A stretch of DNA of 21,441 nt. It comes from a virus. Lineage: Duplodnaviria; Heunggongvirae; Uroviricota; Caudoviricetes. Under the pieces are notes generated by a model. That model did no database searches and had not been told where the DNA came from. It saw only the letters and a list, made by a program, of their open reading frames with translations. The position numbers were made by a program, and so were the translations under genes. Location of the stretch: the IMG/VR virus record IMGVR_UViG_2695420728_000017; one strand, given 5' to 3'. Shown piece after piece: positions 3,981-21,441 of the stretch (the stretch's first letter is position 1; each line of letters starts with the position of its first letter).

Positions 3981-4148
3981 TCAAGCATTATGCAGGCTGT
4001 TTCTTTTTATCACCGGCCACAGCAATACCACAATGCCGCAGACCAGCACCCCATCCGCCAGCACCGACATGATTCTGCTGGTGAGATCCACCATCACCAC
4101 CAGAAACAGCAGGAGTGCAGCCACAGCCAGGCGCAGTTTTACCGTCAC
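3981..4148 (-). CDS. small hydrophobic protein (~55 aa, two predicted TM segments), translationally coupled to TerB-family gene
   Basis: GTG start at 4146-4148 overlaps the TGA stop of the upstream gene. Translation VTVKLRLAVAALLLFLVVMVDLTSRIMSVLADGVLVCGIVVLLWPVIKRNSLHNA; stop at 3981-3983. Not in ORF track (<60 aa). Confidence 0.25.
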   Translation of the reverse strand: MTVKLRLAVAALLLFLVVMVDLTSRIMSVLADGVLVCGIVVLLWPVIKRNSLHNA

Positions 4149-4576
4149 AGGTGATTCTCCAGACGAAGACCCAGAACACCGGCAATCTCTTCCAGCACCT
4201 TGCGCTCTTCCGGCTCAATTTCGCCGTCTGCCTCCGCAATGGCCACCGCCACATCCAGCACATCTTCCGCTTCACGCGTATCGTGTTTCACATCCTCAAT
4301 CTCGCGTAACGCGGCACGACGACCAATTTTAAAATTGGTATCCAGCTGACCGATAATGGTTGCGCTAATCGCATTAATTTCCGAGGTAAACGCAGACAAC
4401 GCAGGCTGATTACGTAAGACCTGTTCGATCTTCGCTTTCTCGGATGCCTCGCATTCACCATCTGCATAGGCCACCAGGTATGCAGCGTTAATCACCGCCT
4501 GTGCCAGATCGCGTTTCTCAAACTTTTTAATTTCCGCTGCCGCTCTGCGGGTTTTCTTTTTGAAGATTCCAAACAT
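4145..4576 (-). CDS. TerB-family (tellurite-resistance TerB-like) protein
   Basis: Internal ATG at 4574-4576 preceded by AAGGAA RBS gives a 143-aa protein MFGIFKKKTRR...; paired acidic motifs (AYADGECEASEK and AEADGEIEPEER) match TerB architecture. The ORF-track 24-codon N-terminal extension (GTG at 4648) lacks an RBS. Confidence 0.65.
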   Translation of the reverse strand: MFGIFKKKTRRAAAEIKKFEKRDLAQAVINAAYLVAYADGECEASEKAKIEQVLRNQPALSAFTSEINAISATIIGQLDTNFKIGRRAALREIEDVKHDTREAEDVLDVAVAIAEADGEIEPEERKVLEEIAGVLGLRLENHL

Positions 4577-4745: not shown

Positions 4746-4822
4746 TGGCGCGTTGTAGTGGAGTCTAACCACTGACCGATTGCTTAGAAGGCAATTGCTC
4801 TGTCCGACTGAGCTAACAACGC
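4746..4822 (-). tRNA. argO: tRNA-Arg (anticodon TCT, decodes AGA/AGG); atypical T-loop
   Basis: 77-nt cloverleaf by hand: acceptor GCGTTGT/ACAACGC, D-arm GCTC/GAGC, anticodon stem ATTGC/GCAAT with loop CT-TCT-AA, T-stem AGTGG/CCACT, encoded CCA. T-loop is TTAGACT (A at position 56 instead of C). Third position in an Ile-Arg-Arg trio as in Stx-phage ileZ-argN-argO. Confidence 0.6.
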
Positions 4823-4835
4823 ATGATGCTGATAA

Positions 4836-4912
4836 TGGACCGCCATCGGGGACTTGAACCCCGCGCAGCCAGCTTCGAAGGCTGGCGCTCTGTCCCGATG
4901 AGCTAATAGCGG
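4836..4912 (-). tRNA. argN: tRNA-Arg (anticodon TCG, decodes CGA/CGG)
   Basis: 77-nt cloverleaf: acceptor CCGCTAT/ATGGCGG (one G-U), D-arm GCTC/GAGC, anticodon stem CCAGC/GCTGG with loop CT-TCG-AA, T-arm CGGGG-TTCAAGT-CCCCG, encoded CCA. Confidence 0.75.
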
Positions 4913-4921
4913 TATGTAATA

Positions 4922-4997
4922 TGGTGGCCCTTGCTGGATTTGAACCAGCGACCTGGCGATTATGAGTCGCTCGCTCTCACCACTGAGCTAAAGGGCC
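4922..4997 (-). tRNA. ileZ: tRNA-Ile2-like (anticodon CAT, lysidine type; close to ileX/ileY)
   Basis: 76-nt cloverleaf: acceptor GGCCCTT/AAGGGCC, D-arm GCTC-AGTGGTGA-GAGC, anticodon loop CT-CAT-AA, T-arm GCTGG-TTCAAAT-CCAGC, discriminator A, CCA. Near-identical in layout to E. coli ileX as I recall it. A CAT anticodon alone cannot exclude tRNA-Met. Confidence 0.8.
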
Positions 4998-5025
4998 GAG
5001 CCAAAAAATAATAATCAGATGAAAA

Positions 5026-5739
5026 TCAATAATCAAGCCCTTGCCTGGATACATATCTGTCTGGCGGGAAGCCATAATAGCGGTGAAATACAGAAATAAA
5101 GTAGGACCTGCTTGAATAACCGCATTTTTCTGCTATAGCCTGTCCATATCCATGCCGGGAACATAACATATTTACAGCAACACGCATCCGCTCTTCCAGC
5201 AACAAGCGACTGAACATGCCCCCTTCATTTTTCAGTTTTGTCTTTAACAAACTCTCACTCATATGCAACTGTAGAGCAATCGCACCAAGCGTCCAGCTTG
5301 CTGATATATCTGTCTGAATTATCGCCCTGACTTTGGCACTTATGCTGGATAAACATCCACTTAAAAACAATGACATCCGTTCATCTGTTTCAAACAGAGA
5401 CAGGCAGGCCATCATAAGAAACATATCCGTGGCCTCTCCGGAAAATCCCTGGCTGGTAATTAAAGCCGCAGCCAACGCAGGATTGTTGGGTTCCAGCAAC
5501 AGGTAAAGCGGAATGTCAGTCAGACGAGTCCTCGTCAGCTTATGCTGACTTTCCAGATATTGACTTACGACGGATTCGCTTATATCGACAATTTTAACTT
5601 TGCCATAATGCATAAGGAAAAGCTCCCTGATGCATTTGGTGGCCAGAACAACTGAGCCTGGCTTAAGTGACAACGTATCCTTTTCAAGAAAAATATTAAT
5701 TGGGGAGCAAACCATGATAACTGAACAGACAACAGCCAT
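5026..5739 (-). CDS. AraC/XylS-family transcriptional regulator (prophage moron; AppY/PatE-like class)
   Basis: 237-aa ORF; C-terminal dual HTH region (…AIALQLHMSESLLKTKLKNEGGMFSRLLLEERM… and …GYSSRSYFISVFHRYYGFPP) is typical of AraC family. Stop lies 28 bp upstream of the tRNA-Ile 5' end. Confidence 0.75.
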   Translation of the reverse strand: MAVVCSVIMVCSPINIFLEKDTLSLKPGSVVLATKCIRELFLMHYGKVKIVDISESVVSQYLESQHKLTRTRLTDIPLYLLLEPNNPALAAALITSQGFSGEATDMFLMMACLSLFETDERMSLFLSGCLSSISAKVRAIIQTDISASWTLGAIALQLHMSESLLKTKLKNEGGMFSRLLLEERMRVAVNMLCSRHGYGQAIAEKCGYSSRSYFISVFHRYYGFPPDRYVSRQGLDY

Positions 5740-5873
5740 TATAATTTTACTTTCATTAGCAATTGGTTAGCTCAATTATAGCCCCAAAAGGTAAATTATC
5801 ATCAACACATAAGCAAAGGACTGACAGGTGTCGCCCCCCCACCAGCCGCCCATTCACCACAAATAAAAAGCCT

Positions 5874-6071
5874 TCAGGACTGAAGGCGTCTGTAACAACC
5901 GCACTGATAGTCTGCCAGACCCGCCATAACAAGCTGGGTCAGTATTAACTGGCAGCGTTCGCGTGAAAGGTAAGTATTCTGCGCAATCTCCCCGACTGTC
6001 GCCGGTTCGGTGACGCTTAATTCATCAAACACAACTCTGGCGGTTTCTGTCATATCCTGCTGTTTCAGCAT
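5874..6071 (-). CDS. small putative DNA-binding protein (65 aa, HTH/winged-helix-like)
   Basis: ATG at 6069-6071 with AAAGGG about 8 nt upstream; the segment TVGEIAQNTYLSRERCQLILTQLVMAGLA resembles a recognition-helix region. Family not recognised. Confidence 0.3.
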   Translation of the reverse strand: MLKQQDMTETARVVFDELSVTEPATVGEIAQNTYLSRERCQLILTQLVMAGLADYQCGCYRRLQS

Positions 6072-6349
6072 GTCTTTTTACCCTTTCCGGTTAACGTGAC
6101 ATACCAATAACTCTTGTCTAAAAAGCCAGCAAGATAAAAAGCCAGTATTCACGACCACCAGCGTGTTTACTGTACTGCACCAGGTTTACAGGTACAAAAA
6201 AACCGCTCAGCGGCGGGTTTAAGTTGTGTGGCGAAGTAACCACTCTTAACACACTAATAGCATTTTTGTTATAACACAAGTAGCTCATTCAGTATTTTTA
6301 GAATCTTGACTTTCTTAAGCACGGAGAACTCTGAATACCAAACATAAAA

Positions 6350-6968
6350 TCAATTATCTTCCAGGCCGGATGCTATCAACGAAAGCCTCTCAAAAAACGC
6401 TGTAGCAGCCTTGTCCAAAGTTGAATAAGTACTGTATTCTCCGTGTTCGGGACCAACCACTACCCATGGTCGTCTTTTTGGGATTCGGGACTTCTCAGAA
6501 ATCACTGTTCCAGATATACCAATATCAATTGTTACACCTGTTATTATTTTCTCTTCATCTCTTTCCCTGAACTCAATTGCCATAAATGCCGTTTTTTTTT
6601 CGTTTCCCGTTTTTAAAAAAATCAAATAAAGCAAAGCGATGCTCATTAAAATCAACACCCCATCGTCCTTCAGGATAAAGGGCATGAAAGTTGTCATTTA
6701 CGCTCTGCATCGTCTCATAAGCTTTAACTTCTAAATCTCCATAGTGCATAGATACCGCGCAGGAGTCACTGGGTAACTGTATTTTCCCAAGATTGAAAAC
6801 CTTTACTGCTCCAGAACTATGGCATCTTGCCCGCAATTTATCCCCATTTATACTAATCGGAGAAATATTCCTTAATGTTCCGGGCTGGCTCCCTCCTAAG
6901 TAAACGACTGTTAAAGATTGCTTATTTTCAATTGCATCAACTAATACATGCTCTACATTTTTATCCAT
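6350..6968 (-). pseudogene. frameshifted gene of unknown function (possible WYL-like fold); frames switch at an A9 homopolymer
   Basis: ATG at 6966-6968 with GGGAGG RBS 7 nt upstream. The N-terminal frame (126 codons, ends TGA at 6573-6575) and the C-terminal frame (continues to 6350) overlap at 6573-6697 and are joined by a 1-nt shift at the T9 run 6592-6600 (A9 in the mRNA). Deleting one A gives a continuous ~206-aa protein. Confidence 0.5.
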
Positions 6969-7043
6969 AATAACCTCCCAATGAACAGGTATCATCAGGA
7001 GGTTATTATAAAATATGATTATTTACTTTGATTGAATTTATTA

Positions 7044-7415
7044 CTATATGTAACAATCAATTTCTAAAGATACCCCCAACATTGCCAGACAACCGTCAAT
7101 AAACCCTTCAGCTTTCTGCAGTCTGATAACAACCTGATTAAGTGATATCCCCAGTTTTACCCCCAACGCCCGTAATGTAACCCCATACACATAATACATT
7201 TCCAGTAATTCGTATTGATACGGTTCCTTTTTCTTAAGAACTGTCATCGCAGAGCTAATGATCAGGCCATCGTCATCGCTACATTGCGGGCGGGATTTTA
7301 CTTTCGAAGGAATTAATCCCTTAAAACCTGCAGCAACAGATGACCATTCCACATCCTCGTGATTATTTGCCACCCATGCCCCCCAACGTTCAAGAACCAT
7401 TTGAATATCACGCAT
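7044..7415 (-). CDS. late-gene antiterminator Q (lambdoid Q family, QuuD-like)
   Basis: ATG at 7413-7415 with GGAGAAAG RBS gives 123 aa starting MRDIQMVLERWGAWVANNHEDV, which matches my recollection of DLP12 QuuD. The ORF-track start at 7430 is a TTG with no RBS. Confidence 0.8.
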   Translation of the reverse strand: MRDIQMVLERWGAWVANNHEDVEWSSVAAGFKGLIPSKVKSRPQCSDDDGLIISSAMTVLKKKEPYQYELLEMYYVYGVTLRALGVKLGISLNQVVIRLQKAEGFIDGCLAMLGVSLEIDCYI

Positions 7416-7432
7416 CAACTTTCTCCACAAAA

Positions 7433-8428
7433 TCAGGCCAGCACGCCTATTGCCAGCGCACGATCGATAAAACGAAATATCAGCTCCAGCTGGGAGCCAT
7501 ACTTCTCTTCAAATGCCACGGTATCCGCATGCAGCTCGTCGTGATGCTTTCTGCACAAAGGCAACACAAAGAGGTCATGCGCTTTTGTAGCCATTCCACC
7601 CTGACCGTGACCTATCAGGTGGTGGGGATCATCAGCAGGCTTTCCACAACATGCGCACGGCTGCGTCTTAACCCAGCGCGTGTACTTTTCATTAACCCAG
7701 CGGCGACGTTTTGGGCGTAACATAAAAGACTCCGGCGACTCCGGATCCACTTTCAGCGCCAGCACCTTTTTTGCCTTATCCTGGATGATGCTGGTGGCAG
7801 GAACCGAAGGCACAAGGTCACTTTCCCGGGTGACAGACGGCACAACAGGCTTTGGTAATCTCAGTGCCTTACGGGCTGCACTTTCCGGTAAGACATCCGC
7901 CAGGTCATTACGAATCAGCCACCAGCACAGTTCCGGCATTGTCACAACGTGACTATCATCAAAACCGAGATCCCGACGCACAACAGACAACACCCAGCGG
8001 GCACAGTTATCCGTTGCCATTGATTCCAGTCGTTCCGTGAACTGATCGCGCAGCTGGTTATCGCAGTGCCAGCACAGACGGATTGCGCCCGGCGCGTGCC
8101 GCATTGTTGTCATGTTCTCGCTGTGCCAGTCGGAATGAGGCCACTGGCAGCCTTTTTCACGAAGTAACCAGCTTTCAAGACATTCCACGCCACCAGCACG
8201 ACGGATCACTGCCTCATTGCGGAACACGGCCCGAACGGCAGGATCATCCGCCAGCGGTTGTGATGCCGCCGGTACGGCACCACTGGCGAAAGATGAATAA
8301 CGTTCCGGCTCAGGCTCCAACAGGACACGCCCCTGCATAAACAGGGGCATCAGCTCTGAACCTGGTCTGAACAATACGATCCCCATACGCGGGGCAATTT
8401 CAGGGGTCAGTAGTGCTCTCACGGTCAC
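7433..8428 (-). CDS. DUF968-family prophage protein (YdfU-like; C-terminal Cys/His HNH-like motif)
   Basis: 331-aa ORF, GTG start abutting the upstream stop; C-terminus QPCACCGKPADDPHHLIGHGQGG…CRKHHDELH. Typical position between rusA/kilA-N and Q. Confidence 0.5.
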   Translation of the reverse strand: MTVRALLTPEIAPRMGIVLFRPGSELMPLFMQGRVLLEPEPERYSSFASGAVPAASQPLADDPAVRAVFRNEAVIRRAGGVECLESWLLREKGCQWPHSDWHSENMTTMRHAPGAIRLCWHCDNQLRDQFTERLESMATDNCARWVLSVVRRDLGFDDSHVVTMPELCWWLIRNDLADVLPESAARKALRLPKPVVPSVTRESDLVPSVPATSIIQDKAKKVLALKVDPESPESFMLRPKRRRWVNEKYTRWVKTQPCACCGKPADDPHHLIGHGQGGMATKAHDLFVLPLCRKHHDELHADTVAFEEKYGSQLELIFRFIDRALAIGVLA

Positions 8429-20192: not shown

Positions 20193-20197
20193 AGAAA

Positions 20198-20226
20198 AAA
20201 CCCGCCTGAAGGCGGGTTTTCAAAAA
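20198..20226. terminator. bidirectional intrinsic terminator between convergent genes
   Basis: Stem AAACCCGCC/GGCGGGTTT with TGAA loop, flanked by an A-run on the left and T-run on the right, so a U-tract follows the hairpin on both strands. Confidence 0.6.
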
Positions 20227-20239
20227 GCACCAGCTATGA

Positions 20240-20413
20240 TCATGCTGCTTTGCGACGACGAAGCTTACCCTGCTGCTCTTTACCAGAGACAGTAGCGTGA
20301 GTGAACGCATTAGGAGCAGCCTTCATCAGAACTTCAACAGCAGCACCCATACCTGCGAATGCTTTCATTGTGTCGAACTTAACCTGTGGCTTGGTTGCTT
20401 TTTGATCTTCCAT
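20240..20413 (-). CDS. small hypothetical protein (57 aa, Lys/Ala-rich)
   Basis: ATG at 20411-20413 with GGAG 6 nt upstream; MEDQKATKPQVKFDTMKAFAGMGAAVEVLMKAAPNAFTHATVSGKEQQGKLRRRKAA; ends just before the bidirectional terminator. Not in ORF track (<60 aa). Confidence 0.35.
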   Translation of the reverse strand: MEDQKATKPQVKFDTMKAFAGMGAAVEVLMKAAPNAFTHATVSGKEQQGKLRRRKAA

Positions 20414-20452
20414 AGAAAACTCCAGAAGTTATACCGAAACAATTCCTGTTGT

Positions 20453-20872
20453 TTACTCATCATCAATAGATGATACGCAATATTTATTTTTAAATTTAAG
20501 GTTCTTTGGCGTAACTTCATCAGATATATCAAAACCGTCCAGAATTCTATTGAATGTAGCTTCTGGCATATCATCATGAACAGAAATCTCACCCGATTGC
20601 TGCTTTCTAACCATGTTATCCACTCGCCAAATTATAGCTTCAGCGTAAACAACATAACTTGGATGCTTGATAAAGCGATGATCACCTGAATTCAAGACGC
20701 AAGACGGATCGTGGGGAACCCCATCCTTGATACTAGAAATATTAACAACTAAAACACAATAACAATCGTTAACGGGGTAATAAACAGGATCATTACAAAT
20801 CACATGAAGATGATTGCATGGCCCAGTTGGGGCAAGCACAGTTCCTTTCCTGTATGGCTGATAATCCGTCAT
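20453..20872 (-). CDS. hypothetical Cys/His-rich protein (139 aa), candidate partner of the upstream Panacea-domain gene
   Basis: Its ATG overlaps the stop of the upstream gene by 4 nt (20869-20872). No family recognised; Cys/His cluster …GPCNHLHVICNDP…NDCYCVL…HDPSCVLNSGDHRFIKHP…. AT-rich. Confidence 0.5.
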   Translation of the reverse strand: MTDYQPYRKGTVLAPTGPCNHLHVICNDPVYYPVNDCYCVLVVNISSIKDGVPHDPSCVLNSGDHRFIKHPSYVVYAEAIIWRVDNMVRKQQSGEISVHDDMPEATFNRILDGFDISDEVTPKNLKFKNKYCVSSIDDE

Positions 20873-21441
20873 GATAATTGCAAAGAAAATTCCTTAAGTT
20901 TCTGAGATTCTTCCATTTTGCCAATTATGCGATTAGCCTCATCCTCGCTTTTACCCTCACTGATCAGCATTTCTTTCAGGTCTATAGGCTTACGAGAATT
21001 GCCAGGATTGTGCCACTCTGGACAAACGCTTTCTAAATGCGTCATGTTTGCGAGATCAAATCGGTTCATATGCCCATACAGAGAATAGATTTCATCTAAA
21101 ATCCGGATATCTGCACGGCTCAACTCATCAAAGACCTCGTCTGCATCCATTTCCCTCGGATCTGAACGCAACAACACATCATGCCCGTTCGTCTCTATCA
21201 AGTTGTACCAGTAGTCACCAATGCCTTCAGCCTTACCACGAATCAAGTTCAGCGTATTCGACATGACTGGACCAAATTTCATAGAGTAAAGGCTATCTTC
21301 GCCGATCATCCTGCCATGCTTCAAAATCGACTTGCGGTTAGACAGATAGAGCAGCTTCATCAATTTCAGATATGCCATGCGCCCACCTCGCTTAAGAAGT
21401 AGGTATGCAGCCATTTGAGCTACTTTTTCTTCGCAAAACAT
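20869..21441 (-). CDS. Panacea-domain (DUF4065/SocA/GepA-like) protein; may be 5'-partial at the window edge
   Basis: …YLKLMKLLYLSNRKSILKHGRMIGEDSLYSMKFGPVMSNTLNLIRG… and …MTHLESVCPEW… fit the Panacea pattern (KLxKLLY…W/F-x-YGPV…). The listed ATG is the last codon of the window, so the true start may lie beyond it. Confidence 0.5.
   Translation of the reverse strand: MFCEEKVAQMAAYLLLKRGGRMAYLKLMKLLYLSNRKSILKHGRMIGEDSLYSMKFGPVMSNTLNLIRGKAEGIGDYWYNLIETNGHDVLLRSDPREMDADEVFDELSRADIRILDEIYSLYGHMNRFDLANMTHLESVCPEWHNPGNSRKPIDLKEMLISEGKSEDEANRIIGKMEESQKLKEFSLQLS

Follow-up and report, generated by a model that had tools for sequence, protein, structure and literature searches.

A PanAT Toxin–Antitoxin Pair, Predicted from Sequence, at the Attachment-Site End of a dusA-Integrating Lambdoid Prophage of Escherichia coli

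Results

Gene Organization of panA and panT

The DNA analyzed here is a 21,441-nt stretch of viral sequence (Duplodnaviria; Heunggongvirae; Uroviricota; Caudoviricetes; IMG/VR record IMGVR_UViG_2695420728_000017), hereafter called the window, whose last genes lie on the minus strand near the end of an E. coli lambdoid prophage. Two of these genes are the subject of this study: panA, encoding a protein with a Panacea (DUF4065) domain, and panT, encoding a 139-aa protein. A first-pass annotation made from the sequence alone had proposed them as a candidate toxin–antitoxin (TA) or defence pair. The TA part of this proposal is now supported by the Panacea match, by the conservation of both genes together at each of 24 loci and by membership in a family with a validated Pseudomonas representative.

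The panA gene (20869-21441, minus strand) is a complete open reading frame (ORF) of 573 bp encoding 190 aa. PanA matches the Pfam family SocA_Panacea (PF13274) with E=1.8e-18 and 67.9 bits, against a gathering cut-off of 25.7, which bears out the domain assignment of the first-pass annotation. The Panacea domain occupies residues 27-137 with no extra N-terminal domain, and the C-terminal tail (about residues 154-190) is acidic (pI 4.7). The gene is represented in RefSeq by a 573-bp entry, WP_000458583.1, named "Panacea domain-containing protein". Although the upstream part had been thought to be cut by the window edge, the final three bases of the window are the start codon of panA, the coding sequence is complete and the N-terminus (MF[CS]E.K.AQMA) is kept in 23 orthologues, so that only the promoter region lies outside. 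A single-sequence structure model of PanA was unusable (pLDDT 42), and nothing is claimed from it.

The panT gene (20453-20872, minus strand) follows directly. The stop codon of panA and the start codon of panT share the tetranucleotide ATGA at 20869-20872 (minus strand), in agreement with the predicted antitoxin-first order and 4-nt overlap. As read from the sequence, this overlap implies that translation of the two genes would be coupled. The RefSeq product of panT, WP_133253836.1, is 128 aa long and begins at an internal GTG at 20839; a phage record annotates the 139-aa form. Since the N-terminal motif MTxYxPYRKGT is conserved among homologues, we take the ATG at 20872 as the real start, and the RefSeq start is probably wrong, leaving the protein 11 residues (MTDYQPYRKGT) short.

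Pfam, NCBIfam, PADLOC and PDB sequences contained nothing significantly similar to the 139-aa protein (searched as a single sequence and, for PDB, also as a profile). Matches to ICMT, DapC and methionyl-tRNA synthetase were far below the cut-offs and at chance level, and were rejected. PanT does match PHROG 19071, which has no assigned function. A word-indexed search found 63 clusters, mostly from Enterobacterales, Vibrio and Shewanella, and an exhaustive profile search yielded 2709 representatives at E<=1e-3 and 926 at E<=1e-10. Nearly all were of 120-150 aa among the matches listed, within a span of 78-187 aa. Because so many representatives were found and 32 diverse members gave no Pfam family at E<=0.001, PanT belongs to a large family that lacks a Pfam model. 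The earlier statement that the protein matches no known toxin family therefore holds for Pfam, NCBIfam, PADLOC and PDB sequences; it fails for the literature, in which the protein falls into a published toxin cluster, and for the predicted fold, which is MazF/PemK-like (see below).

PanT is acidic (pI 5.4). H21, L22, C58, H65, Y76, G113 and S117 are invariant across distant family members, and D55, F67 and S72 are nearly so. The other cysteines and histidines behind the earlier description of PanT as Cys/His-rich (C19, H23, C26, C38 and C40) are lineage-specific. As a separate observation, the 90%-identity protein cluster that includes the window PanA also contains the 139-aa toxin, which is unrelated to PanA, and a 232-aa N-terminally extended PanA call. 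This mixed cluster looks like a clustering artefact, and owing to it the exact E. coli toxin was not the top match in the first homologue search.

Co-Conservation of the Pair

A scan of species-representative genomes detected 26 loci with a PanT relative (L003-L028). Sufficient DNA upstream of the toxin homologue was available for 24 loci, and in every one of them the adjacent upstream ORF encoded a Panacea protein of 184-195 aa; all 24 of these ORFs were Pfam-positive (best E 7e-28). The loci belong to Gamma-, Beta- and Alphaproteobacteria, so that the same pair, as had been suggested for checking, does recur in other genomes. The junction between the two genes is an overlap of 4 or 1 nt in most Gammaproteobacteria and a gap of 3-27 nt in Alpha- and Betaproteobacteria. 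The flanks vary from locus to locus, comprising a prophage excisionase, an IS3 transposase, a serine recombinase, a phage baseplate-like gene or plain chromosomal genes, so that panAT moves as a two-gene module. Toxin and antitoxin diverge from the window proteins in step (r=0.95, n=22), as is expected of co-inherited partners, although such a correlation by itself is no proof of interaction. The toxin is also encoded in nine phage records, with hosts including Escherichia, Yersinia, Vibrio, Pseudomonas, Klebsiella and Helicobacter.

Kurata et al. 2022 (PNAS 119:e2102212119; PMC8832971), who surveyed DUF4065/Panacea neighbourhoods and distinguished 88 toxin clusters, defined a PanAT pair by a distance of at most 100 nt between the genes, occurrence in at least two species and a reciprocal association of toxin and PanA. 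The two-gene arrangement found here agrees with this definition, with a 4-nt overlap in the window and recurrence in all 24 loci across three proteobacterial classes.

Within E. coli, panA DNA was found in 208 of 5426 complete genomes (about 4%), at full length in 208/208. The panT DNA was present in the same number of genomes and covered at least 80% of its length in 203 of them. In E. coli AR_0089 (L031 1591-2559), IS903B lies inside panT and panA is intact; in strain 7_33_46A (hit H121), only 137 bp of panT remain beside panA. Loss of the toxin with retention of the antitoxin, and never the reverse (5 vs 0 of 208), is the asymmetry expected of a TA pair, albeit in small numbers and judged from lengths only. 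A separate case was seen at the locus of a Bathymodiolus platifrons symbiont (L028), in which two overlapping tblastn fragments of the toxin (4001-4273) with no long ORF stand adjacent to an intact 190-aa PanA; this locus looks like a decaying module that retains its antitoxin.

Membership of PanT in the Published Cluster T6

PanT is 57% identical to WP_101821906.1 (P0288, locus L007), a listed toxin of cluster T6 of Kurata et al., and another of our loci (L009) is the contig of the T6-listed Pantoea septica LMG 5345. On these sequence grounds, PanT is a member of T6. In the accessible part of their Dataset S1 (PMC8832971), T6 is recorded as antitoxin-first with overlaps of -4 or -1, and its listed members are from Pluralibacter gergoviae, Proteus vulgaris, Photorhabdus, Pantoea septica LMG 5345 and "Yersiniaceae bacterium 2016Iso4" (PanA WP_101821908.1, toxin WP_101821906.1). 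The same part of the dataset lists the Pseudomonas moraviensis pair WP_083354365.1/WP_083201923.1, flagged "TA" and annotated by HHpred as "EndoA/PemK/MazF-family RNAses". The link between the window PanT and the P. moraviensis toxin runs via this cluster assignment and not via direct alignment. No E. coli pair appears under T6 in the accessible part of Dataset S1, and neither WP_000458583 nor WP_133253836 was found in the portion of the supplementary files that was available.

The P. moraviensis pair is the experimentally validated representative of T6. Its toxin is toxic in E. coli and is rescued by the cognate PanA, the PanA–PanT complex was co-purified by pull-down, and the toxin selectively inhibits incorporation of 35S-methionine (PMC8832971). 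PanAT pairs work by stable complex formation (PMC8832971), and stand-alone Panacea antitoxins neutralise directly, with MazF/PemK among the commonest toxin folds in the TA network (Ernits et al. 2023, PMC10440598). Both the P. moraviensis pair and the window pair have a stand-alone Panacea antitoxin without an N-terminal domain, place the antitoxin first with a 4-nt or 1-nt overlap, and encode a toxin of ~130-140 aa with no CDD/Pfam match and a predicted MazF/PemK-like fold. Furthermore, the residues MIFSEQKVAQ, which Kurata et al. restored to the N-terminus of P. moraviensis PanA (PMC8832971), resemble the start of the window PanA (MFCEEKVAQ) and the conserved N-terminus of the family. The two pairs differ in their setting: the window pair belongs to a lambdoid prophage that occupies dusA in E. 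coli, while the P. moraviensis pair is flagged "NotPhage" in the accessible part of Dataset S1.

We also considered cluster T1, which contains the pairs of E. coli MOD1-EC5558 and Salmonella phage Emek. Like the window pair, these have a Panacea antitoxin gene ahead of the gene for a small predicted mRNase and reside in Enterobacteriaceae prophages. They differ from it in toxin cluster and in overlaps of 20 and 62 nt, and their toxins were reported as not toxic. Identity of the window pair with the non-toxic MOD1 pair was ruled out, as the latter belongs to T1, and phage Emek was not among the tblastn matches of the window toxin.

A further known system with the same Pfam domain, SocA_Panacea, is the type VI TA system SocAB of Caulobacter, in which SocA, the first Panacea/DUF4065 antitoxin to be described, is a ClpXP adaptor for degradation of the toxin. 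PanA scored 13.5 bits against the NCBIfam SocA equivalog NF047745, for which the cut-off is 190, and PanT is not SocB but has a MazF-like predicted fold.

Predicted Fold of PanT

An AlphaFold2 model of PanT, built from a 29-sequence alignment, was of high confidence, with a mean pLDDT of 88.6 and a pTM of 0.82. It consists of a five-strand barrel-like core followed by three helices. When the model was compared with PDB using Foldseek, the list of matches was almost entirely MazF (best E 3e-3, probability 1.0), with TM-scores normalised to target length of 0.53-0.63, and the BFVD list was headed by viral predicted structures named PemK-like or endoribonuclease. The predicted fold is that of an SH3-like barrel of the CcdB/MazF superfamily. 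In this model, H21 lies at the start of strand 2, and D55, C58 and H65 lie within a long loop (residues 48-71).

MazF, Kid (PemK) and EndoA resemble PanT in their small size and in its presumed role as the toxin of a two-gene module; a further point in common is inhibition of translation, seen with a T6 family member. PanT differs from them in ~30 extra C-terminal residues forming two further helices, in its conserved His/Asp/Cys/His in place of Arg/Thr, in having no detectable sequence similarity to them, and in its partner, a Panacea protein rather than a MazE/Kis/PemI antitoxin. Catalysis, a sequence-specific cleavage of RNA, depends on Arg and Thr in MazF and on Arg, Asp and His in Kid.

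The 57-aa ORF Downstream of panT

A 57-aa ORF (20240-20413, minus strand), with GGAG 6 nt upstream of its ATG and a match to PHROG 2741 (E=8e-36), follows panT. Its product is basic and Ala-rich (pI 10.2). The gene lies 39 nt downstream of panT, and since no terminator was found in this spacer, it is probably co-transcribed with panAT here. Its sequence cluster occurs on more than 1000 contigs, being very common in E. coli/Shigella lambdoid prophages, and the gene always adjoins a PrtN-type excisionase gene (xis). In phage mEp460, it stands beside xis with no panAT. None of the 26 non-E. coli loci with a toxin homologue carries it, and in the 87%-identical Pluralibacter and Kosakonia prophage copies panT abuts xis directly. 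The 57-aa ORF, which the first-pass annotation had grouped with the pair, is therefore present with its ribosome-binding site as described, but it is an independent lambdoid gene and not a component of the pair.

Position of the Pair in the Prophage

The panA–panT–57-aa block with its terminator spans 20196-21441, and ORF calls and inspection of the sequence place all of its coding on the minus strand. Its GC content is 0.40-0.43, compared with about 0.50-0.57 across much of the window. The neighbours are convergent plus-strand early-left genes, namely a DUF551 gene, a 3'-5' exonuclease gene and the PrtN-type xis. A terminator scan detected a bidirectional intrinsic terminator at 20196-20221 (both strands), situated between the block and the convergent xis. 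Its GC-rich hairpin has 11 base pairs, 6 of them GC, and runs into a T tail; inspection of the sequence shows a run of A on the opposite side. This terminator is common to the panA–panT–57-aa transcript on the minus strand and to the early-left/xis transcript on the plus strand. About 250 bp separate the block from the end of the lambdoid prophage, whose integration site is dusA. These observations agree with the earlier view of an AT-rich cargo at the prophage end, opposite in strand to the early-left genes and closed by a bidirectional terminator.

Several E. coli chromosomes match the last 1642 bases of the window at 100% identity, and the temperate phage Lys8385Vzw matches them at 98.5%. 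In the genome of this phage, the integrase gene lies ~450 bp beyond panA. As the integrase gene comes next after panA there, the attachment site attP lies between panA and int, which makes the panAT pair the last position before the attachment site. Phage mEp460 shares xis and the 57-aa gene with the window; homology stops 13 nt upstream of the 57-aa ATG, and an unrelated 177-aa hypothetical gene (L029, 4311-4844) occupies the position equivalent to 20453-21441 of the window. In lambdoid phages that integrate in dusA, the stretch from xis to attP is thus a variable cargo slot, filled by panAT in some and by a different gene in mEp460.

Extension of the sequence beyond 21441, as the first-pass annotation had advised, revealed the displaced 5' end of native dusA (MHGNSEMQKINQ...), co-oriented with panA and ~250 bp upstream of it (L001 9896-10000 and 9643-9895, i.e., about 130-360 bp past the window end), and, ~130 bp ahead of panA, a weak sigma-70-like site (TTGACC-17-TAAACT). 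Because the dusA fragment is co-oriented with panA and no terminator-like site was found between them, transcription from the host dusA promoter may continue into the cargo operon; such read-through into panAT is a possibility that we infer from the arrangement only.

Two other features of the window were recorded in passing. Three phage tRNA genes lie at 4746-4997 (minus strand), Arg-UCU, Arg-UCG and a CAU-anticodon tRNA, the last of which is called Met by ARAGORN and Ile by RefSeq. A second AT-rich block (GC 0.38-0.44) at ~5000-7500, downstream of the Q antiterminator gene, includes minus-strand ORFs such as 6573-6995 and 6350-6697, and the matching RefSeq record places a WYL-domain protein and small hypothetical genes within it. 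This block may be another cargo region.

Discussion

We consider, with a probability of roughly 80%, that panA and panT constitute a type II PanAT TA module, which the dusA-integrating lambdoid prophage carries as accessory cargo at its att-proximal end. Our analysis establishes the domain assignment, the gene arrangement, the co-conservation, the family membership and the predicted fold. The pair had been put forward as an uncharacterised system; with PanT in the published cluster T6 and a MazF/PemK-like predicted fold, it is instead an E. coli prophage-borne member of an already published, experimentally validated PanAT family, and not a new system.

By analogy with the P. moraviensis T6 pair, which we expect the E. 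coli pair to resemble in behaviour, a working model can be drawn. The panA and panT genes would be translated as a coupled bicistron through the ATGA overlap. Free PanT, with its predicted MazF/Kid-like SH3-barrel fold, would block protein synthesis and so stop growth; its presumptive target is RNA, which it would most likely cut. PanA, as a stand-alone Panacea protein, would bind PanT directly and hold it inactive through its Panacea core, perhaps with the help of its acidic C-terminal helices. In the predicted structure, H21 and D55/C58/H65 may line the groove that binds RNA in MazF and could form an active or metal-binding site.

Several observations weigh against this interpretation. Eight of the 25 PanTs tested by Kurata et al. 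were not toxic in E. coli (PMC8832971). The likeness of PanT to MazF is structural only, at the level of the predicted model. No PemK_toxin or CcdB Pfam match was obtained for the window PanT (E<=1) or for the 32 diverse family members (E<=0.1), a PanT profile search of PDB sequences returned no MazF, and comparison of E. coli MazF and Kid with the family profile by hhalign was not significant (probability <1%), aligning only the C-terminal helix and the topologically equivalent segment of strands 2-3. The conserved His/Asp/Cys/His set of PanT differs from the Arg/Thr dyad of MazF, and this difference, together with the acidic pI, makes RNA cleavage by PanT a presumption. Finally, no operator-like palindrome was found upstream of panA, and no PADLOC-DB v2 defence model matched PanA, PanT or the 57-aa protein (E<=1).

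A rival view is that the pair is conserved but does not function as a TA system in E. coli, either because the toxin is not toxic there or because its target belongs to a phage or another foreign element, with Panacea acting as a partner or sensor. The eight non-toxic PanTs include the E. coli MOD1 and Salmonella phage Emek pairs (PMC8832971), and the proposal of Ernits et al. makes Panacea chiefly a sensor (PMC10440598). However, both of these non-toxic pairs belong to T1 and not to T6, the tested T6 representative was toxic in E. coli and was neutralised (PMC8832971), and in E. coli genomes it is panT, never panA, that is shortened or disrupted by an insertion sequence (5 vs 0 of 208). We therefore regard a pair that is inactive in E. 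coli as improbable. As CcdB and MazF share one fold, PanT might instead be CcdB-like and poison DNA gyrase rather than cut RNA, which we think very improbable.

The remaining explanations concern the boundaries of the system. If the 57-aa basic protein were a chaperone, regulator or second toxin, the system would have three genes. Such a reading would fit the good ribosome-binding site of this ORF, its position 39 nt after panT with no terminator between, and the common terminator at 20196-20221, but the occurrence of the 57-aa gene without panAT in mEp460, its absence from the 26 non-E. coli loci and the direct junction of panT and xis in Pluralibacter and Kosakonia leave it only a slender chance. 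The notion that panA and panT are fragments of one larger disrupted gene has nothing but the 4-nt overlap in its favour and is almost negligible: the two are separate genes with conserved starts and stops in 24 loci of three proteobacterial classes, they differ in domain and fold, and no longer fused homologue occurs among the profile matches (78-187 aa).

A more far-reaching variant can also be drawn. T6 PanTs would not be ordinary MazF RNases but would use their own invariant H21/D55/C58/H65 set, borne on a MazF scaffold, as a metal site or other catalytic centre or on another target, in abortive infection triggered by phage sensing through Panacea and with expression from the dusA side. Expression from the host side of the attachment site could occur, because the displaced dusA promoter points into the operon. 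We consider this combination unlikely, if worth keeping in mind.

Returning to the type II PanAT module, its role in the lysogen is a matter of conjecture. Abortive infection or superinfection exclusion is our leading guess, because the pair is AT-rich cargo at the prophage end and there is precedent for phage defence by prophage TA systems; prophage stabilisation is the alternative. No later paper on the PanAT pair or on Panacea prophage defence was found.

A 2022 publication already described the family and its action as inhibition of translation that complex formation neutralises, so the scientific novelty of this assignment is small, and the questions that follow from it, namely the biochemical target, the part played by the conserved His/Cys/Asp, the trigger and a contribution to phage defence, are incremental. 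Nevertheless, the analysis assigns a function to two genes annotated as "hypothetical" or by domain only that are carried by about 4% of the complete E. coli genomes and by several temperate phages. It also corrects the start given for panT in RefSeq and reveals the slot between xis and attP of dusA-integrating lambdoid phages as a cargo position.

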